From Segetibacter sp. (lineage in GTDB: Bacteria > Bacteroidota > Bacteroidia > Chitinophagales > Chitinophagaceae): a DNA stretch of 64,000 bases. The notes under the pieces are model-generated. The model saw only the letters and a program-made list of their open reading frames with translations. It had not been told where the DNA came from and ran no database searches. Positions 10,774 through 25,664 of the stretch are shown one piece after another; within the stretch, counting starts at the first letter, position 1, and each line of letters opens with the position of its first letter. The DNA lies in the NCBI GenBank assembly GCA_031424295.1, contig JANPHE010000273.1:1832-65831 (forward strand). The letters run 5' to 3'. Both the position numbers and the translations under genes were made by a program.

Positions 10774-10783
10774 AACGCAGTGT

Positions 10784-12133
10784 ATGGCGAAGAAAATAAT
10801 TTTCCTTTTCCTGTTGAGTTTTTTATCCTCAATGATTTGTGTGCAAGCACAAACAAAAGAAGAATTGCAACGAAAGCAACAGGAATTAATTAAAGAAATC
10901 AGGGACCTGAATGCTTCTTTGAAAGCGATCAGAAACAGTAAGACCAAATCTTTGGCAAATTATAACCTGATTAAAAGGAAAATAAATGCCAGGGAAGAGT
11001 TGATTCATAGCATCAATCGGGATTTGCATATCCTTACTGATAATATTTATTTGAATACGCTTGAGATCAACAGGCTTAATAAAGAACTGGATACTTTGAA
11101 AAAGGAATATGCAAAAAGCCTGGTATTTGCTTATAAAAACCGGAGCAATTACGATTATCTAAATTTCATTTTTTCTGCTAATACTTTTAATGATGCAATT
11201 AAACGGATAACTTACCTAAAAAGTTATAAGCAATACCGCGAACAACAAGTTGATAACATTCAAAAAACGCAGTTACTTATCAATCAAAAAATTGCTTCAC
11301 TAGAAAGTAGTAAAATAGAGAAAAACTTAGCGTTGGCTAACCAGAACGTTGCTTTGAAAGATCTGGAAGCAGATAAGAAAGAACAGAACGAGGAAGTTAA
11401 CATGCTCAAACAGCAGGAGAGTAGTATAGCACAGCAGATTAAGAAAAGAGAAGCAGACAGAAAGCAGATGCAGAATGCCATAGCTGCCATTATTCGTCGC
11501 GAAATAGAAGAAGCAAGAAAAAAGGCAATTGCTGAGGCTAAAAGGAAAAAAGAAGAAGAGGAAAAGAAGAAAAGGGATGCAGCAAATATTGCTAAAACAA
11601 AACCACCTTCCGGCAATACTACGCCAGAGAAAAATGAACCACTAGACCTGCCGAAGAAACCAAGAACAGCTTCGGATCGTATTTATAGCGAATTGGAAAG
11701 TACAGATGAAAGCAAACAAATGTCTATCAACTTTGAAACTAGCAGGGGCAGGTTGCCCTGGCCTGCAGACATTGGAGTAGTGAGCATTGGTTTTGGTACC
11801 TATACAATACCGGGAACTCAGATAAAGGGAAGAAGTGATGGTATTTATGTAGCATTACCAACTGGATCATCTGTTAAGAATGTGGCCAATGGCGAAGTGT
11901 CAGCAGTTTATGACTTAGGCGGAGAACAGGCGGTAACTGTAAGGCATGGTAAATACTTTACTACCTATAGTCACTTATCATCTGTATCTGTAAATCAAGG
12001 TCAAACCGTAAGACCGGGAACTATCATTGGCCGGGCAGCTGCAAATGATGCAGGCGAAGGAGAATTGCTCTTTATGGTAACCAATGAGCAAAGTGTATTC
12101 CTTGATCCTGAGAATTGGCTAAAGCGCAGATAG
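10784..12133 (+). CDS. Coiled-coil M23 family metallopeptidase (EnvC-like murein hydrolase activator)
   Basis: Signal peptide, a long Lys/Glu-rich coiled coil, then a C-terminal LytM-type domain (GRLPWP...GIYVAL...VTVRHGKYFTTYSHL...GQTVRPGTIIG). Confidence 0.75.
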   Translation: MAKKIIFLFLLSFLSSMICVQAQTKEELQRKQQELIKEIRDLNASLKAIRNSKTKSLANYNLIKRKINAREELIHSINRDLHILTDNIYLNTLEINRLNKELDTLKKEYAKSLVFAYKNRSNYDYLNFIFSANTFNDAIKRITYLKSYKQYREQQVDNIQKTQLLINQKIASLESSKIEKNLALANQNVALKDLEADKKEQNEEVNMLKQQESSIAQQIKKREADRKQMQNAIAAIIRREIEEARKKAIAEAKRKKEEEEKKKRDAANIAKTKPPSGNTTPEKNEPLDLPKKPRTASDRIYSELESTDESKQMSINFETSRGRLPWPADIGVVSIGFGTYTIPGTQIKGRSDGIYVALPTGSSVKNVANGEVSAVYDLGGEQAVTVRHGKYFTTYSHLSSVSVNQGQTVRPGTIIGRAAANDAGEGELLFMVTNEQSVFLDPENWLKRR

Positions 12134-13270
12134 TTATTTAGTACATTCCATACTGCAAAATCTGCTGTATAACTTTTCATACAGCGGAATGATGTTTTGG
12201 ATATCAAATTTTTTCGCCTGTTCAAATGCATTCTTTTTGAAAGTTGCAAGTGTCTCTTCATTGCCAAGAATTTCAATGGCAAACTTACTCATGCTTTCTA
12301 CATCGCCTAAATCGGCGAGGTAGCCTGTTTTTCCATGAATGTTTACTTCTGGTAATCCACCAACATTTGTGCTGATTACAGGCGCACTTGCTGCCATAGC
12401 TTCTAATGCAGATAGTCCAAAACTTTCATATTCGGAAGGCAAAATGAATAGGTCACTAACTACCAAAATTTCTTCCATTTGTTCTTGTTTGCCCAGAAAG
12501 CGAACGTCATCTTCTATGCCCAATTCCTTTGCCAATTCTTCCATTGGTGGTCTTTCAGGTCCGTCGCCAACCATCAATAATTTACTATTGATTTTCTCAC
12601 GCACCTTTGCAAACATTTTTATTACATCTTCTACACGTTTTACTTTTCTAAAGTTGGAAGCATGCACTAATATTTTTTCGCCGTTTGGTGCTATTACTTT
12701 TTTAAAAGCATCAATGGGTTTTTTACTAAATCGTGATACATCAACGAAGTTGTGTATTACATCAATATCCTTAGTAATCGCAAATGATTTATAGGTTTCT
12801 TCTTTCAAATTGTGACTTACCGCTGTGATGGCATCACTCTCATTGATACTGAAGGTAACAACAGGTGCATACGTTTTGTCTTTGCCAACTAAAGTAATGT
12901 CCGTGCCATGAAGGGTCGTTATTACTGGAATTTTTTTACCGGCTTTGGCGACAATCTGTTTTGCCATATAAGCCGCCGAAGCGTGAGGTATGGCATAATG
13001 AACATGCAGCAAATCAAGATTGTGGTGCATAATGACATCTACCATAGTGCTAGACAATGCTACTTCGTAAGGTGGATAATCAAACAACGGGTAAGTGGGT
13101 ACACGTACTTCATGATAAAAAATATTTGCACTGAAAAAATTTAACCTTACCGGTTGTTGGTAAGTAATGAAATGCACTGAATGCCCCTTATCTGCAAGTG
13201 CCTTTCCTAATTCTGTAGCGAGCACTCCACTTCCGCCAAAAGTTGGATAACATACTATTCCGATACGCAT
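12134..13270 (-). CDS. bshA: N-acetyl-alpha-D-glucosaminyl L-malate synthase (bacillithiol biosynthesis, GT4)
   Basis: MRIGIVCYPTFGGSGVLATELGKALADKGHSVHFI..., the typical BshA N-terminus. The GT-B C-terminal E-x7-E region is LPSEYESFGLSALEAMA. Confidence 0.8.
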   Translation of the reverse strand: MRIGIVCYPTFGGSGVLATELGKALADKGHSVHFITYQQPVRLNFFSANIFYHEVRVPTYPLFDYPPYEVALSSTMVDVIMHHNLDLLHVHYAIPHASAAYMAKQIVAKAGKKIPVITTLHGTDITLVGKDKTYAPVVTFSINESDAITAVSHNLKEETYKSFAITKDIDVIHNFVDVSRFSKKPIDAFKKVIAPNGEKILVHASNFRKVKRVEDVIKMFAKVREKINSKLLMVGDGPERPPMEELAKELGIEDDVRFLGKQEQMEEILVVSDLFILPSEYESFGLSALEAMAASAPVISTNVGGLPEVNIHGKTGYLADLGDVESMSKFAIEILGNEETLATFKKNAFEQAKKFDIQNIIPLYEKLYSRFCSMECTK

Positions 13271-13589
13271 GGTAGTAGTTCTATTTTAATTTAACAGGCA
13301 ACAAACCTTTGTACTATTAATATTGTTTCAAATCCGAACAAATAATAATTAATGTTTTGCCTTAGAATTTTTGGTATTAGCTTTTGGCTAATACAACTTA
13401 GTGCAAGTAACAATAATTTATTGTATTTGGTTTACCGCTGCCTATTGTCTTTCTACCGTTTAATTAATATAGATGTTTGTTTAATGGGTTTAAACAAGTG
13501 TTTCATAAACGTTAATAAACCAAAAATATTTTTTTAGACGACAAAGGTTTACTTTTATCCGTCGTCTAAAATTAACTGATCGAGACAAT

Positions 13590-14090
13590 ATGATTACACT
13601 TCGTCCATGGCTGGAAACAGATGCTGAGTTGTTGACCGTTTATTATAATAATATCAGCATTTGGAACAATTTACGAGATTATGTGCCAACTCCCTATACA
13701 TTGGAAGATGCGCAGAAATTTATTGGTTCACAGTCAGATATAGTTCCGGCATTAAATTTTGCTATATTGAGTGGCGAAGATTTAGTAGGAGGAATTGGGA
13801 TTACCCTTGGCGAAGACGTATATAGGATGAATGTAGAACTTGCTTATTGGATAGCCGAACCATTTTGGGGTACAGGTATAGCTACAGAAGCTGTTCGCAT
13901 CATGACTCAGCATGTCTTTTTGAATTTTGCTATTAACAGAATAATAGCAGAAGTATTCGAATACAACAAGCAGAGTATGCGTGTATTGGAAAAGAATGGG
14001 TACCATTTGGAATGTGTAAGAAGAAAGGGAGTATTAAAAAATGAATATTTGTATGATAACTATGTCTGGGTTTGCCAGAAAATTATTTGA
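13590..14090 (+). CDS. GNAT family N-acetyltransferase (RimJ/RimL-like)
   Basis: 166 aa. WGTGIATEAVRIM and NKQSMRVLEKNGY are typical GNAT motif A and C-terminal elements. Confidence 0.75.
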   Translation: MITLRPWLETDAELLTVYYNNISIWNNLRDYVPTPYTLEDAQKFIGSQSDIVPALNFAILSGEDLVGGIGITLGEDVYRMNVELAYWIAEPFWGTGIATEAVRIMTQHVFLNFAINRIIAEVFEYNKQSMRVLEKNGYHLECVRRKGVLKNEYLYDNYVWVCQKII

Positions 14091-14152
14091 GGATTAAACT
14101 TTTCATCAATTATTAGTCTAAAGCTTTTAATAAAAAATCTATAAAACTGTTT

Positions 14153-14392
14153 ATGATCAAAAAAAATATCGCAACCAACGAATTTGGTTTTGTTTTTAAC
14201 CCTTCTACAGGGGACTCTTATAGCAGTAATCCCATCGCTGCTGAAATTATCCAAAAAATGAAGGAGAGTATTTCATTGGAAGACATAAAAAGTTTTCTTG
14301 TTGGAAAATATGATGTTGAGAAATCAATCATTGAAAAGGATGTAGATGAGTTTGTGACTATCTTGAAAGAGAACAATTTATTAGCCAACTAA
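14153..14392 (+). CDS. PqqD-family small protein (RiPP-recognition-element-like chaperone)
   Basis: 79 aa. ...FVFNPSTGDSYSSNPIAAEIIQKM...SLEDIKSFLVGKYDV....IEKDVDEFVTILKENNLL follows the PqqD pattern: a beta-strand containing a T-G turn (PSTGDSY here), followed by a helical bundle. Confidence 0.65.
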   Translation: MIKKNIATNEFGFVFNPSTGDSYSSNPIAAEIIQKMKESISLEDIKSFLVGKYDVEKSIIEKDVDEFVTILKENNLLAN

Positions 14393-14404
14393 TCTTTTGC
14401 AAAT

Positions 14405-15457
14405 ATGAGTAATGATCAAAAACCTGTGGTAGTTGCTGTGACAGGCCTCAATGCAATTGATAGTCCCGGACCAGGCGTAGCAGTTATACGTGGCATCAGA
14501 AATGGTATGGACAGGGAAGTTAGGATAATTGGTTTGTCATACGAAGCACTAGAGCCAGGTATTTATATGGATGGCGTCTGCGACAAGGTTTATCAAGTGC
14601 CATATCCTGCTGCTGGCAGCGATGTATTGTACAATAGGATTGCTTACATCAACAGCGTAGAAAACGTTGATGTTATTATTCCGAATTTTGATGCGGAGTT
14701 GTATAATTTTATAAAGATAGCCCCTCGCTTAAATTTATTGGGCATCCATTCATTTTTGCCCACTTTTGAAATGTTTGATGCAAGAGATAAATTGAACTTA
14801 TATTCATTTGGACAAAAACATTCGTTGCATGTTCCCAAGGATAAAGTCATCTATAATGTTGAAGATTTGTATTTGATAGGAGAGGAGTTTGGTTATCCGT
14901 TGGTAGTAAAGGGGAAATTTTATGATGCGGTAGTATCTTATACTTTAGAGCAGGCGCAAAAAGCATTTTATAAGCTTAGTGCCAAATGGGGACTTCCAAT
15001 TATTGTTCAACAATTTATTGCAGGTACTGAAGTAAACATTGCTGCATTAGGGGATGGCGAAGGCAATGCAATCAGTATTATTCCGATGCGCAAGATGTAC
15101 ATTACCGATAAAGGGAAAGCATGGGCGGGAATAACAATAGAGGATGATGCTATGATAGCGATGGCAAAGAACTTCATCAGTGCAACCAAATGGAAGGGTG
15201 GATTTGAAATAGAAATAATGAAGACAGTAAATGATGAACTTTATATTATGGAGATAAACCCAAGGTTTCCCGCATGGATCTATTTGTCTGCCGGTGCAGG
15301 TCAAAATCAACCTGCAGCTTTGGTAAAAATGGCAATTGGAGAGAAGGTTGATCCTTACACTGAATATGAAGTGGGTAAAATGTTTATTCGGTATGCGTGG
15401 GACTTGATAACAGATGTATCGAAATTTCAGCAGATAAGTGCCTTTGGAGAAATGTAA
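14405..15457 (+). CDS. ATP-grasp family carboxylate-amine ligase, specificity unknown
   Basis: 350 aa. YPLVVKGKFYDA, IIVQQFIAGTEVNIA and ELYIMEINPRFPAW are ATP-grasp B-loop and Mg-ATP motifs. It starts 12 nt after the PqqD-like gene. Confidence 0.8.
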   Translation: MSNDQKPVVVAVTGLNAIDSPGPGVAVIRGIRNGMDREVRIIGLSYEALEPGIYMDGVCDKVYQVPYPAAGSDVLYNRIAYINSVENVDVIIPNFDAELYNFIKIAPRLNLLGIHSFLPTFEMFDARDKLNLYSFGQKHSLHVPKDKVIYNVEDLYLIGEEFGYPLVVKGKFYDAVVSYTLEQAQKAFYKLSAKWGLPIIVQQFIAGTEVNIAALGDGEGNAISIIPMRKMYITDKGKAWAGITIEDDAMIAMAKNFISATKWKGGFEIEIMKTVNDELYIMEINPRFPAWIYLSAGAGQNQPAALVKMAIGEKVDPYTEYEVGKMFIRYAWDLITDVSKFQQISAFGEM

Positions 15458-15588
15458 AATTTTTTGAGCTATTTATTAGCTATTTTGAGGTCAATGAAGG
15501 CTATTAATAAAAATGAAAATACACCTGTCATCCTGATTTATTTTAACAACATAAATTTTTAGAACTTTTATAAAATACAATACAAAGC

Positions 15589-16935
15589 ATGGAAAAACTA
15601 AAGTATGAAAGACCGCTGATTAAGAAAATGAATGCTGGATTGATGAACAAATTCGGAACACAATCCGAATTTACTCCTGTAAAGGAAATAGATGGGGTTT
15701 CTGTAAAAAGCATGATAGAAAATTATGGCTCTCCGGTTTTTGTTTTAAGCGAACAAAAGATAAGACAGAATTATAAATCGGCTGTTCGTGCCTTTAAAAC
15801 ACGTTACCCAAAAGTTCAGTTTGCCTGGAGTTATAAAACGCATTATAACAACGCCATTTGCAGAATTTTTCACCAGGAAGGAGCTTGGGGAGAAGTAGTT
15901 AGTGGTTTTGAATATAGAAAAGCATTGGGTAATGGCGTACCTGGAAGCACCATTATTTTTAATGGTCCGGATAAGCAAATTGATGAAATTAAACTGGCCA
16001 TAGAAAATGATTCATTGCTGCACATCGATCATTTTGAAGAACTATATGCTTTAATTGAATTGAGTGCTGAACTAAAGAAGAAACCAAGAGTAGCTATCAG
16101 GGTAAATATGGATACGGGTATTTATCCAATGTGGGATAGATTTGGCTTTAATTACGAGAATGGTCAGGCGTGGTCAGCAATTACCAAAATTGTAAATTCA
16201 GGTACATTGGAATTGACAGGATTGCATACACATATTGGTACCTATATGCTAAGCACTCATGCATATTCGGTGGCGGCTGCTAAGCTTTGCGATCTTGCTG
16301 TAGAATGTAAGAATCAATTGAAGACTACAATAAAATACTTGGATATGGGAGGTGGTTTTCCTAGTGCTAATACATTAAAAGGCTCTTTTTTACCCGGTGC
16401 TGATACCGTCCCATCTATTGATGAATTTGCAGAGGCCATTACAACGACTATCTTAAGTTCAGAATTGCGCAATGACGAATTGCCTTTATTGATATTAGAA
16501 AGTGGCCGATTATTGATTGATGATGCAGGTTACCTTTTAGGATCTGTATTAGCTAATAAGCGTTTAAGCGATGGTAGAAAAGCGACTATCATGGATTTTG
16601 GAGTAAACATATTGTTCACCTCTTTTTGGTACGATCATAAAATTAGCCCTGCACAAGACCTTAGCCACTTTACAGAAGATACCGTTTTGTACGGCCCATT
16701 GTGTATGAATATCGATGTAGTAAGAGAAAGTGTTTGTCTTCCCTTGCTAAACAAAGGAGATCATGTAGTAGTACATAAAGTAGGAGCATATAACATGACC
16801 CAATGGATGCAGTTTATTGCTATGAGACCAAACATCGTGTTGATTGATACAAAAGGGCAAACCCACGTTGTTAGAAAAGCTGAAACATTAGACTACCTAC
16901 AACAACTTGAGGAAATACCGGCTCATTTGAAGTAA
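15589..16935 (+). CDS. Fold-type III PLP-dependent decarboxylase (Orn/DAP/Arg decarboxylase family)
   Basis: FAWSYKTHYN carries the PLP-lysine context, DMGGGFPS is the Gly-rich phosphate loop, ESGRLLID is the EPGR-like motif, and YGPLCMNIDV carries the active-site Cys. Confidence 0.85.
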   Translation: MEKLKYERPLIKKMNAGLMNKFGTQSEFTPVKEIDGVSVKSMIENYGSPVFVLSEQKIRQNYKSAVRAFKTRYPKVQFAWSYKTHYNNAICRIFHQEGAWGEVVSGFEYRKALGNGVPGSTIIFNGPDKQIDEIKLAIENDSLLHIDHFEELYALIELSAELKKKPRVAIRVNMDTGIYPMWDRFGFNYENGQAWSAITKIVNSGTLELTGLHTHIGTYMLSTHAYSVAAAKLCDLAVECKNQLKTTIKYLDMGGGFPSANTLKGSFLPGADTVPSIDEFAEAITTTILSSELRNDELPLLILESGRLLIDDAGYLLGSVLANKRLSDGRKATIMDFGVNILFTSFWYDHKISPAQDLSHFTEDTVLYGPLCMNIDVVRESVCLPLLNKGDHVVVHKVGAYNMTQWMQFIAMRPNIVLIDTKGQTHVVRKAETLDYLQQLEEIPAHLK

Positions 16936-16940
16936 CCTAA

Positions 16941-19139
16941 ATGCCAAATTTGAAACAAACGCAGATAATATCGTTTCTAAAGTTTGCAGGGCTTTCTATT
17001 TTGAACAGTTATTCCATGTTGTTCTTTTCAAAGAATAGCTGGTTGGCTGTAATGATAATGGTCATTACTTTTTTTAATCCTCATAGTGGATTGGCAGGCG
17101 TAGCGGCTACTGCTATTGCTTTGCTATCTGCTTATGCTATGGGGTTTGGAAGATTGCAAGTCAAGACAGGATTGTACACTTACAGTGCTTTATTGCTTGG
17201 CCTTGGTATGGGTACTTTCTACGATTACAGTGCAGCGTTTTGGATATTATTGGCTTTCGCTTCCCTTATTTCTGTTTTATTATCAGCTGCTTTTATAGCT
17301 AAGTTGGCAAAAAATGGTTTGCCAGCTTTGTCGTTAGGATTCATATTGAGCTTTTGGCTTGTAATGCTGGCTTCTAAAGAGTTTTCTGCTATTGGATTAA
17401 CTACAAGAAATATTTATTGGCTCAATGAAATGTATGCAACCGGAGGCAACAAGTTGATCTATTATTTTCAATTGATAGAAAACTGGACATTACCCGATTA
17501 TGTAGCCGGCTTCTTTCGCTCAATGAGTGCCATTATTTTTCAAAATAATTTGTTAGCCGGTGTCTTATTGTCTGTTGGTCTGCTAATCCATTCTCGCATC
17601 GGTTTTTTATTAATGGTTGTAGGATATGCCGTTGCAATGATTTTCAACGGGTTCATGGGTGGATTTCCTTTGGGCGGCGTGAACTATTATAATATGGGAA
17701 CCAACTTCATGTTGGTTGCTGTTGCTATTGGAGGCTTCTATATCATCCCTTCAATATTTTCATTCTTATGGGCATGTTTAATCGTTCCACTTTCGTACAT
17801 ATTGGTAGTAGCTTTAGGTAAGATTACTTTTTTATGGGGGCTTCCCGTTTTCTCACTTCCATTTTGCATAGCTGTTATCTTGTTTCTTTATTGTTTAAGG
17901 TTAAGAACAAACCCGGGACGATTGGTATTGACGCCCATTCAATATTATAGCCCCGAAATAAATCTTTATAGGTACATCAATGGAAAAGACAGGCTGATGA
18001 ATCAGTTTTATCACCACCTTGCTTTGCCAGTGCTTGGTGAGTGGATGGTCAGTCAGGGTTATAATGGTACCATGACCCACAAGGGAGATTGGAATAAGGC
18101 GTTGGATTTTGTAATATTGGATCCTGAAATGAAAACATATGCAATGCCCGGCATTTTGCCTGAACACTTTTACTGTTACAATAAACCAGTTGTAAGTCCT
18201 GCAGATGGCATAGTAGAAGAAATAGTTGATTTCATAGATGATAATGAAATTGGAAAAACAAATACAGGACAGAATTGGGGGAATAGTATTGTAATAAAAC
18301 ACGCCGATTCTTTATATACCAAATTGTCGCACCTTAAGAAAAATTCTTTTAAAGTAACCAAAGGTCAATACGTAAGAAAAGGAGAAATAATAGCTGCCTG
18401 TGGTAGTTCGGGTAGGTCTCCCGAACCGCATTTGCACTTTCAGGTGCAATCCACCCCTTATGTAGGATCAAAGACAATGTACTATCCACTTTCATTTTTT
18501 TATGCACGCAAAGATGACAATGAAAAACTGGAAACCTTTGTTGTACCAAAGGAGGGTGACTTTGTGACTAATGTAATGACTAATAAACAACTTCAGAAAG
18601 CGTTTAATTTTCAGCCGGGTTTTGTGTTAAAGGTGAGTGCTGATGGCTTTGAAACGGAAGAGTGGGAGGTGGTAACAAGCATTTACAATGAATCTTATCT
18701 TTATTGCGAACAACACAATGCCTTTGCGTATTTCACATACAATGGAACACTTTTTTATTTTACCAATTATTTTGGAAAAAAAGATACCCTCCTTTACCTA
18801 TTTTATTTATCTGCCTACAAAGTGCTGCTTAGTGCTGAAAAAGACATAACCGTCAATGACAATTATCCATTGAATATTCTTGGTTTTAGGCCAATAAGGT
18901 GGATACAGGATTTGGTTGCTCCTTTCTTCATTTTCATTAAAATTAATTATCATTCTACTGTGAAAAAGAGAAATGAGTTAAGTGATTATAATATTGAGCT
19001 AACCAGCGAGCAAAATCAATCAATACTTGGAATCACAAAAGATAAAATGCAGTCAACAATAATTGTTCAAAATGGCGCACTGCATGCTTTCAAGGTTATT
19101 ATTAATAATAAAACAATAGAGGCTACATGTACAGAATAA
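16941..19139 (+). CDS. Fusion protein: urea-transporter-like membrane domain, M23 peptidase domain and ~210-aa C-terminal domain of unknown function
   Basis: The first ~330 aa are polytopic. ILNSYSMLFFSKNSWLAVMIMV...GLYTYSALLLGLGMG resembles the UT-family signature (GQV-F-Q-N...GLYGFNG-LVGLA). Residues ~370-510 contain HKGDWNKALDF and SGRSPEPHLHFQV, the M23 H-x-x-x-D and H-x-H zinc motifs. Confidence 0.65.
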   Translation: MPNLKQTQIISFLKFAGLSILNSYSMLFFSKNSWLAVMIMVITFFNPHSGLAGVAATAIALLSAYAMGFGRLQVKTGLYTYSALLLGLGMGTFYDYSAAFWILLAFASLISVLLSAAFIAKLAKNGLPALSLGFILSFWLVMLASKEFSAIGLTTRNIYWLNEMYATGGNKLIYYFQLIENWTLPDYVAGFFRSMSAIIFQNNLLAGVLLSVGLLIHSRIGFLLMVVGYAVAMIFNGFMGGFPLGGVNYYNMGTNFMLVAVAIGGFYIIPSIFSFLWACLIVPLSYILVVALGKITFLWGLPVFSLPFCIAVILFLYCLRLRTNPGRLVLTPIQYYSPEINLYRYINGKDRLMNQFYHHLALPVLGEWMVSQGYNGTMTHKGDWNKALDFVILDPEMKTYAMPGILPEHFYCYNKPVVSPADGIVEEIVDFIDDNEIGKTNTGQNWGNSIVIKHADSLYTKLSHLKKNSFKVTKGQYVRKGEIIAACGSSGRSPEPHLHFQVQSTPYVGSKTMYYPLSFFYARKDDNEKLETFVVPKEGDFVTNVMTNKQLQKAFNFQPGFVLKVSADGFETEEWEVVTSIYNESYLYCEQHNAFAYFTYNGTLFYFTNYFGKKDTLLYLFYLSAYKVLLSAEKDITVNDNYPLNILGFRPIRWIQDLVAPFFIFIKINYHSTVKKRNELSDYNIELTSEQNQSILGITKDKMQSTIIVQNGALHAFKVIINNKTIEATCTE

Positions 19140-20311
19140 AACTGTTTATTTTTTTTGCAGGGATGTTGATCACTTCTTTGCTAAGTGCTCAGACAAATAT
19201 GACTTTTGAAGAAGTTAATACAAAGAGTTATTCATTGTATGAAAAGAGTAATTGGAAAGAGTTATTGCAATTTGGTGATAACGCTATAGGAAGTGGACAA
19301 GATTTCATTTTGCTTAGGCTGAGGTTGGGTTATGCTGCCTTTATGCTCAATAATTTCAGTAAATCTATCAAGCATTATGAAGCAGTAATTAAAGAAGATT
19401 CGTATAATGCTACGGCGCATTATTATCTTTTTCTCTGTAAGAAATACCTAAACCATGAAGCACTTGCAGATAGGCATGCAAAGTATCTTGCCGAAGAAGT
19501 TTTGAAAAATGAAAAGCTGAACGCTTTTGCTTTAACAGGTGTCGGATTGGAAGTTAGTTATAAGCAGACCGACATTAAAGCTAGAGAAAACTCATTGTAT
19601 GCCAGACTTGATTTAGGTACCCGATTGGGGTGGAATATTCATATGGTCAACGCAGTAGGAATGTACAATCAGGTAGTACGCGAACCGAAGTTAACTGCTG
19701 TATTAAATAATAACAATATTCAGGTAAACCAGAAGGAGTATTATAATAAAACCCTGATCAATGTGTCTAATAAGATACAACTAAAAGCGATTTATCATTT
19801 CCTAAATACACCATTTAATAACTTTGTTTATTCCAATCATGTTGGAGGTCTTGGGTTGACTTATTTTAATCATTATTATGATATTAGCGCAGATGCCAAC
19901 ATTGCTAAGTTGACTGATTCTACTTATTACCAATACAATGTTAAGCTTGGATTGTATCCTTTAGGAAACCTCAATTTTTATAGTTTTTCTACAGGGATCC
20001 TTAGAACTAATTCCAATACCGGAACGGCATTTAATATTAAACAGGTTATTGGCTTTAAACTTATGAAGAAAACATGGGTCGAAGTAAATGGAACTTTTGG
20101 AGAATTTAACAATTTGCTTGAGAATGACGCATTGTATGTGTATAATGCAATAGATAAAAATACGTTTAAGGCGGGTGGGACCCTATATGTTACACCTACT
20201 TCAAATTTAGTTTTGACGGTTGGATATACTTATGAAAAAAGAGAACTTTATAAAACACTTTTACCTTTTAATCAACACTCAATAACAGGAGGTCTATCAT
20301 GGAAATTGTAA
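19127..20311 (+). CDS. Secreted protein with an N-terminal TPR-like region and a predicted C-terminal beta-barrel
   Basis: Signal peptide MYRIKLFIFFAGMLITSLLSAQ. LRLRLGYAAFMLNNFSKSIKHYEAVI shares a motif with the two downstream TPR proteins. The C-terminal two thirds are alternating-hydrophobic beta-strand-like and end ...ITGGLSWKL. It overlaps both neighbours by 13 nt. Confidence 0.5.
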   Translation: MYRIKLFIFFAGMLITSLLSAQTNMTFEEVNTKSYSLYEKSNWKELLQFGDNAIGSGQDFILLRLRLGYAAFMLNNFSKSIKHYEAVIKEDSYNATAHYYLFLCKKYLNHEALADRHAKYLAEEVLKNEKLNAFALTGVGLEVSYKQTDIKARENSLYARLDLGTRLGWNIHMVNAVGMYNQVVREPKLTAVLNNNNIQVNQKEYYNKTLINVSNKIQLKAIYHFLNTPFNNFVYSNHVGGLGLTYFNHYYDISADANIAKLTDSTYYQYNVKLGLYPLGNLNFYSFSTGILRTNSNTGTAFNIKQVIGFKLMKKTWVEVNGTFGEFNNLLENDALYVYNAIDKNTFKAGGTLYVTPTSNLVLTVGYTYEKRELYKTLLPFNQHSITGGLSWKL

Positions 20312-20919
20312 AAAAAATATTCGTAGTTAGTGCCATTTTATTTCATGCTGCCGTTGGTATTGCTCAGAATGTGAGTAATATGGAAAAAGCATTTAACGGA
20401 AGTTATAATGAGGAATATCTGAAAAATTATGAAAAGGCTATCGCTGAGCTTAATAAAGTTTATAGCAGCGATAGTTACGAAATGAATTTACGGTTGGGTT
20501 GGTTATATTATCTGAGCAAAAATTATGAAACTTCAGGTAGTTACTATCAAAAAGCGATTAGCCAAAAACCAGAGGCGCTAGAACCGAGATTGGGTATTGT
20601 AATGCCCCTTGCTTTCTTAGATGATGGTACAAAGTTATTGCAACAGTATGCTAGCATAATTAAGTTACATCCTCAAAATACTATTGCTAATTATTGGTCG
20701 GGAGTCATTAACTACAACAAAAAAGATTACAAATCAGCCCAGAAATTTTTTGAAAAAATTGTCGAACTCTATCCATTCGATTATGATTCAAATCACATGT
20801 TAGCTTGGTCGCTTTTAAACCAAGGTAAAAGTGCTGAAGCAAAAACATTTTTTCAAGCAGCCTTGATGGTTCGGCCAAGCGATGCCTCTGCACTTGAAGG
20901 ATTGGGTAAAATAAAATAA
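20299..20919 (+). CDS. Secreted TPR-repeat protein (paralogue 1)
   Basis: Signal peptide plus TPR-like helices (NLRLGWLYYLSKNYETSGSYYQKAI; YWSGVINYNKKDYKSAQKFFEKIVELYP). Confidence 0.7.
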   Translation: MEIVKKIFVVSAILFHAAVGIAQNVSNMEKAFNGSYNEEYLKNYEKAIAELNKVYSSDSYEMNLRLGWLYYLSKNYETSGSYYQKAISQKPEALEPRLGIVMPLAFLDDGTKLLQQYASIIKLHPQNTIANYWSGVINYNKKDYKSAQKFFEKIVELYPFDYDSNHMLAWSLLNQGKSAEAKTFFQAALMVRPSDASALEGLGKIK

Positions 20920-20945
20920 TTTATAAATCAACAAATTAATCAGTT

Positions 20946-21563
20946 ATGAAAACTATCAATAAAATAATAATTTTAGTAGCAATTGTGTTTCAGTCAATGA
21001 CTGTTTTTTCTCAATCAGGAGACCTTCAAAAAGCATTTGTAGAAAGCTATACACAGGAATACAATAAAAAATATACAGAGGCTATTGCTTCATTGGTAAA
21101 AGTATACAATGAGAAAAGCTATGAAATAAACTTGCGGTTAGGGTGGTTAAATTATATAAATGGTAATTACCCCCAATCTCAAAGTTATTACCAAAAAGCG
21201 ATCAACCTAAAGTCCTATTCCATTGAAGCTAAATTAGGGATGATTAAACCATTATCAGCCTTGGAAAGCTGGGATAAGGTATTGCTACAGTATGAAGAAA
21301 TACTAAAGATTGACCCTCAAAATGCCAATACTAATTATTGGGCAGGTATTATTTATTACAATAGAAAAAAGTATGACGCAGCTGCAAAGTATTTCGAAAA
21401 GGGGGTAAATTTATATCCATTTGATTACGATTCTAACCACATGCTGGGGTGGACTTATCTAAATTTGGGTCGTGCGCAAGATGCGAAAATTTTATTTAAA
21501 AAAGCGCTGCTCAGTCATCCAGGCGATGCTTCTGCTACCGATGGTCTTAGCAAGTGTAAATAG
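20946..21563 (+). CDS. Secreted TPR-repeat protein (paralogue 2, tandem duplicate)
   Basis: Collinear with the preceding protein, with roughly half the positions identical by eye. Compare NLRLGWLNYINGNYPQSQSYYQKAI and LYPFDYDSNHMLGWTYLNLG with LYPFDYDSNHMLAWSLLNQG. Confidence 0.7.
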   Translation: MKTINKIIILVAIVFQSMTVFSQSGDLQKAFVESYTQEYNKKYTEAIASLVKVYNEKSYEINLRLGWLNYINGNYPQSQSYYQKAINLKSYSIEAKLGMIKPLSALESWDKVLLQYEEILKIDPQNANTNYWAGIIYYNRKKYDAAAKYFEKGVNLYPFDYDSNHMLGWTYLNLGRAQDAKILFKKALLSHPGDASATDGLSKCK

Positions 21564-21990: not shown

Positions 21991-22836
21991 ATGATTAAAG
22001 CATTTATTCTTACTGTAGTTCTTTCGATGCAATTGATTTTTGCATCAGGAAGGCCAATAATAGGTAATGTTATCTTTCCTATGAATACCGAGTCTTCATT
22101 TGTTTCATTTACAGATAACAATAAAGATAAAGAAGCAGTAATTGAAAAGGCTACTTCTTTGTATGAGTTATTGAATCTTTCTGAACTCGGGCTTTCAAAA
22201 TCTGCCTATGAATATGCTATTCAAGGTTACGTCACACTTTTGAGTAACGGGAAATTAAATAATTCCAATGTTTTATCAATAGTTGACTTCAGCCACCCAT
22301 CCAGTAAAAAAAGGTTGTATGTGATTGATTTGAAGAATGGGAAATTACTTTTCAATACCTACGTTGCACATGGAAGGGGGTCGGGCAGAGAAATGGCAAG
22401 TGATTTTTCCAATGCGCCTGAGAGCAATAAAAGCAGCCTTGGTTTTTTTGTTACAGGAGATACTTATTTTGGAAAGCATGGTTTATCACTTCGCCTATTT
22501 GGTGAGGAAAAAGGTATAAATGATAATGCGAACAGCCGTGCAATAGTAATGCACAGTGCTTCATACGTTACGGAAGACATAATAAAAACCCAAGGTTTTA
22601 TTGGTCGCAGCCAGGGTTGCCCGGCATTACCCGAAGCCTTAAGTAAGCCAATTATTGACAAAGTGAAAAATGGAAGTTGTTTATTTTTATATAGTCCGGA
22701 TAAATTTTATCTGACAAATTCCCGCATTCTCAAAAATGTTATTAAGGAGGAAAAACCAGTAGCCATTAATATATTCAAAGGAAAATATTTTTCTTCCTTT
22801 TTCATGTCTCTTTTAGCCCTGATTAATCATATATAA
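21991..22836 (+). CDS. L,D-transpeptidase catalytic-domain-like protein (YkuD_2 type)
   Basis: YVAHGRGSG...SSLGFFVTGDTYFGKHGLSLRLFGEEKGINDNANSRAIVMHSASYV...GRSQGCPALP contains the H...G-x-S-x-G-C-P catalytic motif of murein L,D-transpeptidase-like proteins. Confidence 0.7.
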   Translation: MIKAFILTVVLSMQLIFASGRPIIGNVIFPMNTESSFVSFTDNNKDKEAVIEKATSLYELLNLSELGLSKSAYEYAIQGYVTLLSNGKLNNSNVLSIVDFSHPSSKKRLYVIDLKNGKLLFNTYVAHGRGSGREMASDFSNAPESNKSSLGFFVTGDTYFGKHGLSLRLFGEEKGINDNANSRAIVMHSASYVTEDIIKTQGFIGRSQGCPALPEALSKPIIDKVKNGSCLFLYSPDKFYLTNSRILKNVIKEEKPVAINIFKGKYFSSFFMSLLALINHI

Positions 22837-22907: not shown

Positions 22908-25664
22908 ATGAAGGATTTTTCATACATCACCAATTCTCATCCGGCATACATTGAAAGCCTATACAAAGAATTTGCGGTAAACCCTGACAGTGTTGACCCG
23001 GAAATGCGCAAATTTTTTGAAGGTTTTGATTTTGCTATCAGTCAAAATGCAACTATTTCCAATGGGGCTTCTCCCGAATCTCCAAGCTTAGCTTCGGTTC
23101 TAGTGGATGATAAAAAAGTGCACAAAGAGTTGAGCGTTTTGCGCCTGATTAAAGCCTATCGGAAAAAGGGACATCTGATAGCTAAAACCAATCCGATTCG
23201 TGAAAGAAAAGACCGAAGAGCAAATCTAAATCTTGAGCATTTTGGTTTATCCGATGCAGACCTTCAAACTACTTTTGAAGCAGGAAATTACCTAGGACTT
23301 CAGAGTAGAACATTGCAAGATATTATTTCCTTTTTGCAAGGTTGTTACACTTCTTCTGTTGGTATAGAATACACTTATATAAACGACCAAGAGAAAATTG
23401 ATTGGCTACAGAATGAAATAGAAGCTGATTTTCAAAAGCCGCTTGCTATAGAAGATAAGAAGAACATTCTGGAAAAATTAAACCAGGGTGTCATTTTTGA
23501 AAAGTTTCTTCATACCAAATACATAGGACAAAAGAGATTTTCATTGGAAGGAGGAGAAACAACAATAGCAGCTTTAGACGCTATGATCAATAGTGCGGCT
23601 GATTTAGGTGTGCAAGAAGTTGTAATTGGAATGGCACACCGTGGTCGCTTAAATGTTTTGGCAAATACACTTGGAAAAACGTACGAGCAAATTTTTAATG
23701 AGTTTGAAGGAACTGCTTTGCCTGATACAACGATGGGTAGTGGCGATGTAAAATACCATATGGGTTTTAGAGGAGAACATACTACTCAGGACGGTAGAAC
23801 AGTAAACCTGCAGCTTTGTCCTAATCCATCTCACCTGGAAGCTGTTGACCCGGTAGTGGTGGGGTTTGCAAGAAGTAAAGCGGACGTTATATATGAAAGC
23901 GAATATGATAGAATTGTACCTATACTTATTCATGGTGATGCCTCGGTAGCTGGCCAAGGTGTAGTTTATGAAGTGGTGCAAATGAGCGGATTAAAAGGCT
24001 ATTATACAGGTGGAACCATCCATTTTGTAATTAACAATCAAATTGGATTTACAACAGATTTTGATGATGCCCGTACGGCTGATTATTGTACGTCGGTAGC
24101 CTCAATGATTCAGGCGCCTGTATTTCATGTAAACGGCGATGATCCTGAGGCTGTGGTTAAGTTAAGTAGAATAGCAATGCGCTATCGCCAGGAGTTTAAT
24201 ACCGATGTTTTTGTAGACATGGTTTGTTACCGCCGACATGGGCACAATGAAGGCGATGATCCAAAATATACCCAACCTACGCTTTATGCCTTAATAGAAA
24301 AGCATGCCAATCCAAGAGAAATTTACAACCAAAAACTTGTCCAAAATGGATCTATCGATGCAGCGTTGGCCAAAGAAATGGAGAAGAAGTTTTGGAGCGA
24401 TTTACAAGAACGGTTAGATGATCTAAAGCAAAATCCAATACCATATAAGTTTCAAAAACCAGAGCTTTGGTGGCAAAATTTGAAGAAGGCAACCAAGGAA
24501 GATTTTGATCAATCGCCTTCAACAGCTATTAGTCAAGAGCAGTTTAAATTAGTCTTTGATAACCTCATGAAATGGCCTGATAATTTTCAGCCTTTGAGAA
24601 AAGTTGAAAAGTTATTGCAAGATAAGATTAAGCTTTTCGAAAAAGATACTTCTATTGATTGGGCTACAGGTGAGCTATTAGCGTACGGTTCTTTGTTGCT
24701 AGATGGAAACGATGTGCGAATGAGTGGGCAGGATGTACGAAGAGGAACTTTCTCTCATCGCCATGCTGTACTGAGAGATGAGCAAAACGATAGTAGTTAC
24801 AATCGTGTAAATCATATTCCCGGTGCTGATGGAAAGTTTAGAATTTATAATTCCTTTCTAAGTGAATATGCAGTATTGGGTTTCGAATATGGCTATTCAA
24901 TAGCCAATCCAAATACTTTGGTTTTGTGGGAGGCGCAGTTTGGCGATTTTTTCAATACTGCACAGCCTATGGTTGACCAATTTATTTCCTGCTCCGAAAC
25001 TAAATGGCAGCAGATGAGTGGGTTGGTAATGTTGTTGCCACACGGATACGAAGGTCAAGGCCCTGAACATAGCAGTGCCCGTATGGAACGTTTTCTACAA
25101 ATGTCGGCAGAACAAAATTGGGTGATTGCAGATATCACAACATCTGCCAATTTGTTCCATGCATTAAGAAGGCAGCTTGCCTGGAATTTCAGGAAGCCAT
25201 TGGTGGTATTTACGCCAAAGGCCAATCTAAGACACCCGGGTAGTTATAGCAAAATGGATGAGTTCTTAACGGGTGGTTTTAAAGAAGTTTTGGATGATAT
25301 TTTCGTTACAAAAACAGATGCCGTGAAAAAAGTCCTTTTCTGCTCAGGTAAGGTTTACTTTGACCTTGCAGAAAGGCAACAAAAGGAGAACAGGACTGAC
25401 GTAGCTATTGTAAGATTGGAACAGATATATCCTTTGCCTATTAAACAATTAGAAGTACTTTATAATAAGTACAATAAAGCAACCTGGTATTGGGTACAAG
25501 AAGAACCTATGAATATGGGGGCTTCAGGATTTTTGCAAATGAATTTGCGTGGAATGAATTATGGTGTTATAAGCAGGCAACCTAGCTCTTCTACTGCCAC
25601 CGGATACTCTAAAGTACATACTCAGGAGCAGGCTGAAATTATTGATACTGCATTTAGTATTTAG
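22908..25664 (+). CDS. sucA: 2-oxoglutarate dehydrogenase E1 component
   Basis: 918 aa. YIGQKRFSLEGGE, GMAHRGRLNVL, HGDA...GQG, VCYRRHGHNEGDDP and WEAQFGDF are the characteristic E1o blocks. Confidence 0.95.
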   Translation: MKDFSYITNSHPAYIESLYKEFAVNPDSVDPEMRKFFEGFDFAISQNATISNGASPESPSLASVLVDDKKVHKELSVLRLIKAYRKKGHLIAKTNPIRERKDRRANLNLEHFGLSDADLQTTFEAGNYLGLQSRTLQDIISFLQGCYTSSVGIEYTYINDQEKIDWLQNEIEADFQKPLAIEDKKNILEKLNQGVIFEKFLHTKYIGQKRFSLEGGETTIAALDAMINSAADLGVQEVVIGMAHRGRLNVLANTLGKTYEQIFNEFEGTALPDTTMGSGDVKYHMGFRGEHTTQDGRTVNLQLCPNPSHLEAVDPVVVGFARSKADVIYESEYDRIVPILIHGDASVAGQGVVYEVVQMSGLKGYYTGGTIHFVINNQIGFTTDFDDARTADYCTSVASMIQAPVFHVNGDDPEAVVKLSRIAMRYRQEFNTDVFVDMVCYRRHGHNEGDDPKYTQPTLYALIEKHANPREIYNQKLVQNGSIDAALAKEMEKKFWSDLQERLDDLKQNPIPYKFQKPELWWQNLKKATKEDFDQSPSTAISQEQFKLVFDNLMKWPDNFQPLRKVEKLLQDKIKLFEKDTSIDWATGELLAYGSLLLDGNDVRMSGQDVRRGTFSHRHAVLRDEQNDSSYNRVNHIPGADGKFRIYNSFLSEYAVLGFEYGYSIANPNTLVLWEAQFGDFFNTAQPMVDQFISCSETKWQQMSGLVMLLPHGYEGQGPEHSSARMERFLQMSAEQNWVIADITTSANLFHALRRQLAWNFRKPLVVFTPKANLRHPGSYSKMDEFLTGGFKEVLDDIFVTKTDAVKKVLFCSGKVYFDLAERQQKENRTDVAIVRLEQIYPLPIKQLEVLYNKYNKATWYWVQEEPMNMGASGFLQMNLRGMNYGVISRQPSSSTATGYSKVHTQEQAEIIDTAFSI

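Follow-up and report, generated by a model that had tools for sequence, protein, structure and literature searches.

Which process would bring together, in one run of closely spaced genes, a small peptide-binding protein, an amide-forming ligase, an amino acid decarboxylase, a urea-channel fold fused to a peptidase, and a set of envelope proteins? This question is raised by a 64,000-nucleotide stretch of DNA from the Chitinophagaceae bacterium Segetibacter sp. (GenBank assembly GCA_031424295.1, contig JANPHE010000273.1), hereafter the window, in which such genes occupy positions 13590–21563 of the forward strand. An initial annotation of the window had described seven of them as a candidate undescribed operon and had offered three hypotheses for its function, namely carrier-tethered small-molecule biosynthesis, guided peptide modification and export, and peptidoglycan editing. 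We find that the block represents, in Bacteroidota, a system that is widespread and apparently undescribed; the system is real, whereas its mechanism and product can only be proposed. As far as family relationships indicate, its core comprises a recognition element for peptides that are made by ribosomes and modified after translation (RiPPs), or RRE, of the lasso B1 type, an ATP-grasp ligase, a pyridoxal phosphate (PLP) decarboxylase, and a protein of the urea transporter (UT) fold with a predicted cytoplasmic, amide-cleaving C-terminus that is either an M23 peptidase or a sirtuin. Its partners are a periplasmic tetratricopeptide repeat (TPR) protein, often a GNAT acetyltransferase, and, only in a subset of lineages that includes that of the window, a putative outer-membrane TPR-barrel protein.

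A conserved block of eight genes

The window proteins were compared by tblastn with 80 genome loci that encode relatives of the ATP-grasp ligase and come from Chitinophagaceae, Sphingobacteriales, Cytophagales, and Flavobacteriia. In essentially all of these loci that are sufficiently long, the order GNAT, PqqD, ATP-grasp, decarboxylase, UT::M23, barrel, and TPR is kept. The ligase and the decarboxylase are 68–82% identical to the window proteins and the envelope proteins 24–67%, the ATP-grasp being the most conserved protein of the block (68–81% across Chitinophagaceae, Sphingobacteriales, and Flavobacteriia, and 98% in the near-identical locus L001). Because the same order recurs in essentially all 80 related loci and also in 80 distant metagenome loci described below, the arrangement is far beyond chance. 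The gene-neighbourhood comparison that the initial annotation had suggested thus finds the block syntenic across Bacteroidota and beyond, and its view of the genes as one conserved functional unit is upheld by synteny in genome and metagenome loci as well as by natural fusions.

An ORF check of the window confirmed the seven open reading frames (ORFs) listed previously between 14153 and 21563, all on the forward strand, and their spacing and domain assignments likewise agree with the ORF coordinates, Pfam, and NCBIfam. Intergenic gaps of 12, 131, and 5 nt are followed by two 13-nt overlaps and a gap of 26 nt; both overlaps have the form ATGnnnnnnnTAA, with ATGTACAGAATAA at 19127 and ATGGAAATTGTAA at 20299. 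While the seven ORFs are real, the block extends further than had been supposed, since a GNAT acetyltransferase gene (13590–14090, + strand; Acetyltransf_3, RimJ/RimL-like, Pfam E 1e-25) lies directly 5′ of the PqqD gene in most of the 80 loci and was recovered as a complete ORF in 64 of them. It is part of the conserved block, which therefore holds eight genes, and represents an accessory but recurrent member of the system. At the other end, the two TPR genes of the window are 51% identical to each other and are a lineage-specific tandem duplicate: L001 also has two, whereas other genomes have one. The single TPR genes of those genomes match copy 2 (51–67%) better than copy 1 (41–57%), so copy 2 is the one nearer to the single orthologue.

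The composition of the block corresponds to no characterized pathway, as had been surmised. No NCBIfam equivalog cut-off is reached by any of its proteins, no system-specific model matched either the window or the distant proteins, and full-text literature searches found no description of the gene cluster. The UT::M23 architecture itself has been listed, without function or gene context (PMC12998343), and parts of the system stand in public annotations as "urea transporter", "carbamoyl-phosphate synthase large subunit", or "ATP-grasp domain-containing protein".

Distant lineages and two architectures

A full-library search with the ATP-grasp returned 222 clusters at E ≤ 1e-30, the exact sequence of the window's ATP-grasp having no record in the contig collection, and a metagenome scan provided the 80 further loci, which were annotated with hidden Markov models built from distant seed loci and in which gene content was counted. 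The PqqD gene lies 5′ of the ATP-grasp gene in 70 of 70 distant loci with room for it, and a UT fusion lies 3′ of the decarboxylase gene in 55 of 55 with room for it. Two architectures can be distinguished: a single ATP-grasp together with UT::M23 (38 loci) and a tandem ATP-grasp of about 710 amino acids (aa) together with a fusion of UT to a sirtuin, UT::SIR2 (14 loci). Three loci seem to break this pairing; at least two of them (L111 and L156) look like truncated or over-extended ORF calls, and the third (L109) shows the UT part only. Both forms span GC contents of 0.32–0.72, and the M23 form occurs as far afield as a metagenome-assembled genome of Magnetococcales (L173), with the order PqqD, ATP-grasp, decarboxylase, and UT::M23. 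Among the SIR2-type loci, L082 reads TPR lipoprotein, PqqD, tandem ATP-grasp, decarboxylase, and UT::SIR2; L083 has the same order with UT::SIR2::GNAT at its end, and L092 starts with an Acetyltransf_3 GNAT gene and continues in the order of L082. Neighbouring components are also found as natural fusions, including PqqD::ATP-grasp (P0198), ATP-grasp::decarboxylase (P0171), and, once, UT::SIR2::GNAT (L083).

Several loci depart from both architectures. In L084–L086 (GC 0.65; e.g. L084, 9681–14583), PqqD is followed by a single 871-aa ATP-grasp::decarboxylase polypeptide, the UT fusion is replaced by a soluble protein of 637 aa whose degenerate C-terminus weakly resembles nucleotide cyclases, and a giant TPR protein, a TonB_C-like protein, and a HEAT-repeat protein are encoded upstream. 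In the marine Bacteroidota loci L090 (8747–10047) and L091 (7415–8715), an 85-aa PqqD-like gene overlaps a gene for a 348-aa ATP-grasp that is 47% identical to that of the window; these minimal pairs adjoin a gene for a cargo protein of the type IX secretion system (Por_Secre_tail), and neither a decarboxylase nor a UT protein accompanies them. L081 (10001–11056) holds an ATP-grasp alone. Additionally, the SIR2-type loci L099 (from 8728 onward) and L101 (from 9189 onward) carry an extra stand-alone 281-aa sirtuin right after the UT::SIR2 gene.

A lasso-type RRE and a leader-like motif on the decarboxylase

The first of the core genes encodes a 79-aa PqqD-family protein (14153–14392, + strand; Pfam PqqD E 2e-11). 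A profile of this family matches the lasso B1 proteins TfuB1 (8.6e-17) and TbiB1 (1.6e-15) far better than PqqD itself (1.4e-3), and its best NCBIfam matches are the PqqD chaperones of lasso biosynthesis, which score below their cut-offs. By profile similarity, the protein is a genuine RRE whose nearest relatives are of the lasso B1 type. In lasso peptide precursors, YxxPxL at positions −17 to −12 is the conserved leader motif (PMC10368454), and the part of the leader that bears it contacts the B1 RRE (PMC6784204). A systematic search for small ORFs that could encode such a precursor (12–100 aa, both strands, cluster ± 800 nt, 80 loci) returned only shadows of coding regions and nothing conserved.

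The motif was found elsewhere. In a motif check of the cluster, YxxPx[LI] occurred only at the N-terminus of the decarboxylase, where the tail peptide MEKLKYERPLIKKMNAGLMNKFGTQ contains Y6, P9, and I11; the complete element, Y6-E-R-P9-L-I11 ... N20-K21-F22-G23, with YxxPx[LI] and a Lys at +15, is encoded at 15604–15657 (+ strand). Across both forms of the system, Y..P.[LIVM] lies 5–11 residues from Met in 139 of 141 decarboxylases, the remaining two reading YEPMRL. Of 109 unique tails, 104 have a Lys at +15 from the motif and 89 a Gly at +17; in some tails of the SIR2 type, the Lys is at +16. The distance from the motif to Lys-x-Gly corresponds to that from the lasso motif to the junction of leader and core, and the tail lies outside the region that can be aligned to the structures of FslC and LysA. 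In the one lineage without a UT-hydrolase (L084–L086, with the ATP-grasp::decarboxylase fusion), the motif is located in the linker, and position +15 is Arg rather than Lys. An RRE that reads the tail of the decarboxylase would explain why a precursor gene is absent.

Other candidates for RRE-guided or carrier-based chemistry were rejected. No precursor peptide is encoded in the 131-nt gap between the ATP-grasp and decarboxylase genes, and a larger gap at this junction in a relative (L032) holds an inserted gene that resembles the intervening-sequence (IVS) family, a four-helix bundle. A second RRE motif in the UT::M23 linker (YYSPEI at 335) was discarded, as neither its position +5 nor Y335 is conserved. 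The PqqD protein as a covalent carrier, the role of LysW or BtrI that the initial annotation had considered, is not supported either: C-termini are variable among 79 orthologues, and no acidic residue is kept by distant members, in which the acidic residues conserved in Bacteroidota PqqD proteins are lost (L082, for example, has Arg for the Asp of the TGD motif).

Two side observations concern these regions. The junction of the ATP-grasp and decarboxylase genes, at which the unusually long 131-nt gap of the window is situated, carries in L032 (11215–11580) a gene for a 121-aa four-helix-bundle protein that resembles, judged by eye, the 23S rRNA IVS protein family; Pfam calls the same family in L090 and L091, and similarly enlarged gaps between the two genes are seen in L004, L006, L009, L027, L028, L061, L073, and L075. 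Insertions are evidently tolerated at this junction, which may also contain an internal promoter. Furthermore, residues 331–347 of the UT::M23 linker, TPxQ(Y)YSPExNLY(R)Y, are almost invariant (Q334, P338, and E339 in 58 of 58 sequences) and more conserved than most of the UT domain; a helix of the model starts here (338–356).

The ATP-grasp ligase and the PLP decarboxylase

The ligase (14405–15457, + strand; 350 aa) is identified by Pfam and NCBIfam (ATPgrasp_Ter/ATP-grasp_3) as an ATP-grasp amide ligase similar to carbamoyl-phosphate synthase (CPS), of the PRK12767 type. Its residues K169, Q202, K230, E268, E283, N285, and R287 are kept in 66–74 of 75 family members. A profile of these 75 sequences has its closest matches in 2pn1 (2e-26) and the two halves of E. 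coli CarB (1.6e-23), followed by PurD and the biotin carboxylases, with Ddl far weaker than CPS and PurD. No structure of the RimK, LysX, or GshB type is among the 60 best profile matches listed, and the LysX and RimK models give the window protein 17–23 bits against cut-offs of 143–276. The Ddl/Asl-type ligase of the initial annotation is accordingly replaced by one nearest to CPS- and PurD-type enzymes. Of 25 tandem ATP-grasps, 24–25 retain the catalytic residues K, Q, E, N, and R in their C-terminal module, 23 also keep its second Lys, and all have Glu or Asp at 283, whereas about one third show a loss of catalytic residues from the N-terminal module. The idea that the tandem form acts as a two-step, CPS-like enzyme is weakened by this loss, and the retention in the C-terminal module indicates that one catalytic ligation is the common requirement.

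The decarboxylase (15589–16935, + strand; 448 aa) has the alanine-racemase fold and both Pfam domains of the Orn/DAP/Arg type, and K83 is its predicted PLP-binding lysine. Its nearest solved structure is the N-citrylornithine decarboxylase FslC/FigC (7kh2, 9e-51), then LysA, with BtrK at 6e-23. The lysA model TIGR01048 scores it at 210.8 bits against a cut-off of 297.9, and its substrate loop, GPLCMNID, is similar to the GPSCMQHD of FslC (GPxCM(N/Q)xD), whereas LysA has CES or CET. FigC, SbnH, AcsE, MccE, and BtrK form one clade with DAPDC and D-ODC, and all five act on amino acids that are already joined to a larger scaffold (clade 2; PMC7857480). By similarity, the decarboxylase of the block falls with these enzymes for tethered substrates, and the shared CM(Q/N) substitution in the substrate loop implies that the distal group of its substrate is amide-linked. 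The tethered chemistry that had been hypothesized after BtrI/BtrJ/BtrK or LysW/LysX agrees with these decarboxylase relatives and, in its BtrI/BtrJ/BtrK form, comes closest to the model preferred below, while the carrier role of the PqqD protein is not supported.

A UT-fold membrane protein with an exchangeable hydrolase

The largest protein of the block (16941–19139, + strand; 732 aa) combines Pfam UT and Peptidase_M23 in one ORF, and its AlphaFold2 (AF2) model has a predicted local distance difference test (pLDDT) score of 80.7. The UT domain (aa 1–320; 16941–17900, + strand; Pfam E 7e-49) superposes on the UT of D. vulgaris, dvUT (Foldseek E 6e-15, template modelling (TM) score 0.85), and the signatures P302..S305-L-P-F308 and P128..L130-S131..F134 (LPxxSLPF-type) are invariant in 31 homologues. 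The urea-transporter equivalog TIGR03441 scores it at 90.7 against a cut-off of 274.6. The M23 domain (aa ~355–515; 18003–18485, + strand; Pfam E 8e-17) matches LytM domains (Foldseek E 1e-6), and its H380, D389, H454, H464, H497, and H499 are invariant. It is followed by a β-rich domain that makes up the last 216 residues (aa 517–732; 18489–19136, + strand; AF2 model with pLDDT 75.1 and predicted TM score 0.76) and accompanies the M23 type in most loci; a fold search of this domain against the PDB gave no significant match, the best being YmcC/LolA-like half-barrels (E 9e-3, TM score ≤ 0.42).

The M23 domain had been counted as part of an envelope module, and its predicted topology argues otherwise. 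UT proteins have ten transmembrane segments and intracellular N- and C-termini (PMC12998343), and no hydrophobic segment follows residue 320 of the fusion. In the sister proteins, an NAD-dependent sirtuin, with or without an acetyl-CoA-dependent GNAT, is attached at the point where M23 is attached here. Because the UT termini are intracellular and because domains that depend on NAD and acetyl-CoA share its fusion point, the M23 domain should face the cytoplasm. The SIR2 domain of the sister form matches Sir2Tm, Sir2Af, and SIRT2/3/5 at 1e-25 to 1e-33 and CobB with 135 bits, and is thus, by these matches, of the canonical lysine deacylase type.

Envelope partners and GNAT proteins

Gene 5 of the original seven-gene list (19127–20311, + strand; 394 aa) encodes a secreted protein with a signal-peptide-like N-terminus and TPRs at about 30–125, followed by some 270 C-terminal residues. 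A profile of the family matched PDB sequences only in its TPR part. Since the family consensus ends in GGLxWKF, as outer-membrane barrels do, the C-terminus is a putative outer-membrane β-barrel. The barrel that had been proposed as a component of the system is thus represented here by a TPR protein with a putative barrel, but its gene is present in 54 of the 80 close loci and in only a subset of distant M23-type loci and lineages. The two secreted TPR proteins (copy 1, 20299–20919, 206 aa, TPR families E 1e-17; copy 2, 20946–21563, 205 aa, E 1e-18; both + strand) have counterparts in both forms of the system that share an LGW-type repeat; the window copies carry it as L(G/A)W, and the TPR lipoproteins of distant clusters as (G)LGW. 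Translational coupling links the TPR gene with the PqqD gene in L082, a locus of the SIR2 type. The GNAT protein has the RimJ-like TTHA1799 as its nearest solved structure; its Acetyltransf_3 family also adjoins the SIR2-type clusters L092, L095, and L098, and the GNAT fused to UT::SIR2 in L083 belongs to another family (Acetyltransf_1/7).

A proposed self-tethered decarboxylase and the competing explanations

The explanation that we prefer is one in which the decarboxylase carries its own substrate. First, the RRE would bind YxxPx[LI] (Y6–I11) at the N-terminus of the decarboxylase. Docking would then place the tail, some 15 residues downstream, into the active site of the ATP-grasp ligase, where Lys21 would be acylated with an acid, presumably an amino acid joined through its side-chain or distal carboxyl. 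The decarboxylase would strip the free α-carboxyl of the tethered residue, a reaction for which precedents exist: BtrK is said to decarboxylate BtrI-bound glutamate, and FigC reportedly decarboxylates N-citrylornithine. The GNAT may cap the newly formed amine. Finally, the membrane-anchored M23 domain, or the sirtuin in its place, would cut the acyl-lysine bond where the UT pore opens to the cytoplasm and restore the tail, and the small amide or amine would pass to the periplasm, to be taken up by the TPR protein and the barrel. An acyl-lysine bond as the target of the hydrolase is suggested by two observations made above, the replacement of M23 by a sirtuin and the Arg at +15 in the lineage without the UT-hydrolase.

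We put this scheme forward tentatively, and that every one of its steps is correct is somewhat improbable. Several points weigh against it. The conserved Lys of the tail might have a different role, in folding, dimer contacts, or regulation. Bicarbonate or small acids are what the closest relatives of the ATP-grasp activate, and this fits a small-molecule substrate no less well than one bound to a protein. Minimal pairs of PqqD and ATP-grasp occur without a decarboxylase or a UT protein, and the RRE must therefore have another ligand there; partner proteins with an RRE motif were sought in the minimal loci L081 and L090, and none was found. The first metal motif of M23 departs from the canonical HxxxD, reading H380-x8-D389, and has a pLDDT < 50 in the model. 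Pfam matches only the first ~100 residues of the divergent UT domain in the SIR2 form, and UT pores are narrow and carry neutral molecules, so that many conceivable products would not pass. Release by a sirtuin would also spend NAD in each turnover, which is odd for a biosynthetic route.

An alternative would be a non-covalent metabolon, in which docking of the tail to the RRE only holds the decarboxylase beside the ATP-grasp and an acyl-diamine is made from free substrates in the manner of FigA/FigC. The ligase would join a free acid to the side-chain amine of a free amino acid such as ornithine, lysine, or diaminopimelate (DAP); from this conjugate, the decarboxylase would produce an acyl-diamine for the GNAT to cap. 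UT, TPR, and barrel proteins would move the product across the envelope, and M23 or the sirtuin would hydrolyse it on return or for turnover. The close relationship of the decarboxylase to FslC/FigC, with the specificity loop in common, the affinity of the ATP-grasp to small-carboxylate enzymes (CPS, PurD, and biotin carboxylases), and the ATP-grasp::decarboxylase fusions, which suggest channelling, all speak for such an assembly, which docking of the tail would serve equally well. It leaves the near-invariant Lys at +15 and the Gly at +17 unexplained, however, and offers no reason why the replaceable hydrolase should be of the protein-lysine deacylase type; moreover, we know of no RRE that is a pure enzyme–enzyme adaptor. 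We consider the metabolon possible, if rather unlikely.

A regulatory switch is clearly unlikely. In its favour are the RRE motif and the conserved Lys, both on a tail that the catalytic fold does not include. Here the RRE-guided ATP-grasp would mark Lys21 with an added residue and thereby toggle the decarboxylase, as RimK- and TTL-type enzymes modify proteins, and the sirtuin or M23 would erase the mark upon an envelope signal sensed via the UT domain and the periplasmic TPR protein, the substrate of the decarboxylase being a free metabolite. The tethering of canonical lysine deacylase and GNAT domains to a membrane domain and the translational coupling of TPR and PqqD genes in L082 are in line with this. 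Histidine kinases or chemoreceptors adjoin several clusters, which would suit a signalling role, but the kinases are not conserved neighbours. Furthermore, the ligase and the decarboxylase are the most conserved components and form a single polypeptide in some lineages, which would be unusual for a regulator and its target, and the clade-2 loop signature indicates an amide-linked substrate.

A classical RiPP pathway, close to the RRE-guided modification and export of the second hypothesis, would have a precursor encoded elsewhere, to which the RRE binds, on which ATP-grasp and decarboxylase act, and which M23 cuts for export. The part of that hypothesis that stands is the RRE, genuine by its profile match to lasso B1, and ATP-grasp enzymes are known tailoring enzymes of RiPPs (PMC8939145). 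On the other side, no precursor gene was found in or near the cluster, the small-ORF search having returned nothing conserved within 800 nt of it in the 80 loci, and the expected leader motif sits on the decarboxylase. A PLP decarboxylase cannot act on a backbone-bound residue, and the UT pore would be too narrow for peptides. Additionally, the occurrence of the block in most loci, with enzymes 70–80% identical across families, resembles a housekeeping function and not the patchy pattern of RiPPs. This explanation is very improbable.

An extension of the self-tethered scheme is, at best, a slender chance. By analogy with BtrJ, which re-acylates the amine of carrier-bound γ-aminobutyrate in butirosin biosynthesis, iterative rounds of ligation and decarboxylation might grow a nylon-like ω-amino-acyl oligomer on Lys21, which the GNAT would cap, M23 or the sirtuin would cut, the UT pore would thread, and the TPR and barrel proteins would export. 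The slot-shaped pore, lined for amide hydrogen bonding, might conceivably thread such an unbranched polyamide, a suggestion that we hold to be just as remote. If it were true, the system would secrete polyamides independently of ribosomes and nonribosomal peptide synthetases (NRPSs), with a urea-channel fold as the polymer translocon.

Least probable of all is the editing or recycling of peptidoglycan stem peptides, in which an M23 endopeptidase, a ligase like Ddl or Asl, and an enzyme like DAP decarboxylase would remodel muropeptides or precursors. M23 enzymes do normally cut peptidoglycan cross-links, the decarboxylase is related to LysA, and peptide-bound DAP could in principle be a substrate of a decarboxylase that accepts a distal centre in amide linkage. 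On the other side, the downstream YkuD_2 gene that had been cited in support, the EnvC-like M23 gene, and all other nearby cell-wall genes are not syntenic, the M23 domain is predicted to be cytoplasmic and swaps with a lysine deacylase, Ddl comes far behind CPS and PurD among the matches of the ATP-grasp profile, and to our knowledge an RRE has no role with stem peptides.

If the self-tethered model is correct, the system would contain the first RRE whose "leader peptide" is part of an enzyme and not a separate precursor, extending RRE biology beyond peptide natural products, and would represent a new kind of self-tethered, swinging-arm biosynthesis. It would also provide the first functional context for enzyme-fused bacterial UT-fold proteins and for a cytoplasmic M23 peptidase. 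Because the system is strongly conserved (enzymes 70–80% identical across Bacteroidota families; GC 32–72%), its product is likely to be important for the envelope physiology of abundant soil and freshwater bacteria.

Flanking genes and signals

The limits of the block are set by synteny. Clustering of all flanking ORFs revealed no further conserved neighbour, no cluster being present in more than 8 of 67 upstream or 2 of 47 downstream regions, and the genes that adjoin the block in the window do so elsewhere only in L001. Divergent from the GNAT gene lies a glycosyltransferase gene (12134–13270, − strand) whose product is BshA, which opens the synthesis of bacillithiol (565 bits with TIGR03999, where the cut-off is 274). 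Next to it, 10721–12133 (+ strand) encodes a 470-aa secreted protein with a long coiled coil and a C-terminal M23 domain, which resembles amidase activators of the EnvC/DipM type and is a second M23 protein near the cluster. Downstream follow the YkuD_2 L,D-transpeptidase-like gene (21991–22836) and a 2-oxoglutarate dehydrogenase E1 gene (22908–25664).

Scans for promoters and terminators were uninformative on the limits of the operon, with 40 sigma-70 promoter-like and terminator-like sites found against 42 expected from shuffles, and the Bacteroidota −7 motif TAnnTTTG occurred 67 times, fewer than the 98 that shuffled sequence would give. A perfect 8-bp inverted repeat of the type AGACGACA...TCGTCT (AGACGAC aaaggtttacttttatcc GTCGTCT) is located at 13536–13568, about 20 nt 5′ of the GNAT start codon and inside the 320-nt region common to GNAT and the divergent bshA; it could be a terminator or an operator.

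Comparison with known systems

Among known systems, lasso peptide biosynthesis shares with the block its RRE, nearest to TfuB1 and TbiB1, the YxxPx[LI] motif with a conserved site 15–17 residues downstream at lasso-like spacing, and the company of an ATP-dependent amide-forming enzyme and a peptidase. Unlike in lasso clusters, there is no separate precursor gene, the motif being the N-terminus of a 448-aa enzyme; neither a B2 transglutaminase-type protease nor an asparagine-synthetase-like cyclase (C) is encoded in the block or the distant loci, and the ligase is instead an ATP-grasp, joined by a PLP decarboxylase and a UT channel.

The pairing of an ATP-grasp with a decarboxylase of the alanine-racemase fold recalls BtrI/BtrJ/BtrK of butirosin biosynthesis, in which BtrK acts on a protein-tethered amino acid. 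The block lacks a phosphopantetheinyl carrier, no PP-binding domain being present among its proteins; the proposed tether would be a Lys on the decarboxylase's own tail, and the block additionally has an RRE, a hydrolase fused to UT, and TPR partners. BtrK is, moreover, much more distant than FslC from the decarboxylase of the block. A similar logic applies to LysW/LysX with release by LysK, where an ATP-grasp tethers the substrate to a small protein, enzymes process it, and a metallopeptidase releases it. In the block, however, the small protein is an RRE with a variable C-terminus and no LysW-type acidic tail, the ligase is outside the RimK/LysX family, and the putative release enzyme is M23 or a sirtuin, not M20.

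The nearest solved relative of the decarboxylase, FigC, which shares its CM(Q/N) loop, belongs to the FigA/FigC (FslA/FslC) rhizoferrin route; this route and other NRPS-independent siderophore (NIS) pathways with such decarboxylases (SbnH and AcsE) resemble the scheme proposed above in that ligation precedes decarboxylation. These pathways differ in their ligase, which here is an ATP-grasp with an RRE partner; no NIS synthetase of the IucA/IucC type is present in the block or the fetched loci, nor are a siderophore receptor or iron-linked genes. LysA differs as well, its equivalog cut-off not being reached and its CES loop being replaced by CMN.

With the urea transporters dvUT and UT-A/UT-B, the membrane domain shares the UT fold and the signature motifs. 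Here, the UT fusion is an obligate member of a ligase and decarboxylase operon and alternates with UT::sirtuin, and urea has no evident link to the other enzymes of the block. In the periplasmic M23 endopeptidases MepM, ShyA, and LytM, the metal and catalytic residues follow the pattern HxxxD ... H ... HxH; in the block's M23 domain, H454, H464, and H497-x-H499 are invariant, and the first motif, H380-x8-D389, is spaced differently and modelled at low confidence. Those enzymes are extracytoplasmic, whereas the M23 domain of the block is predicted to be cytoplasmic. Finally, polymer export systems of the PgaA, BcsC, and AlgK–AlgE type combine TPRs and an outer-membrane β-barrel with a polymer synthase of the inner membrane; the block encodes TPRs with a putative barrel but no synthase of the glycosyltransferase type, and the PgaA and PrsT models score its proteins far below their cut-offs.

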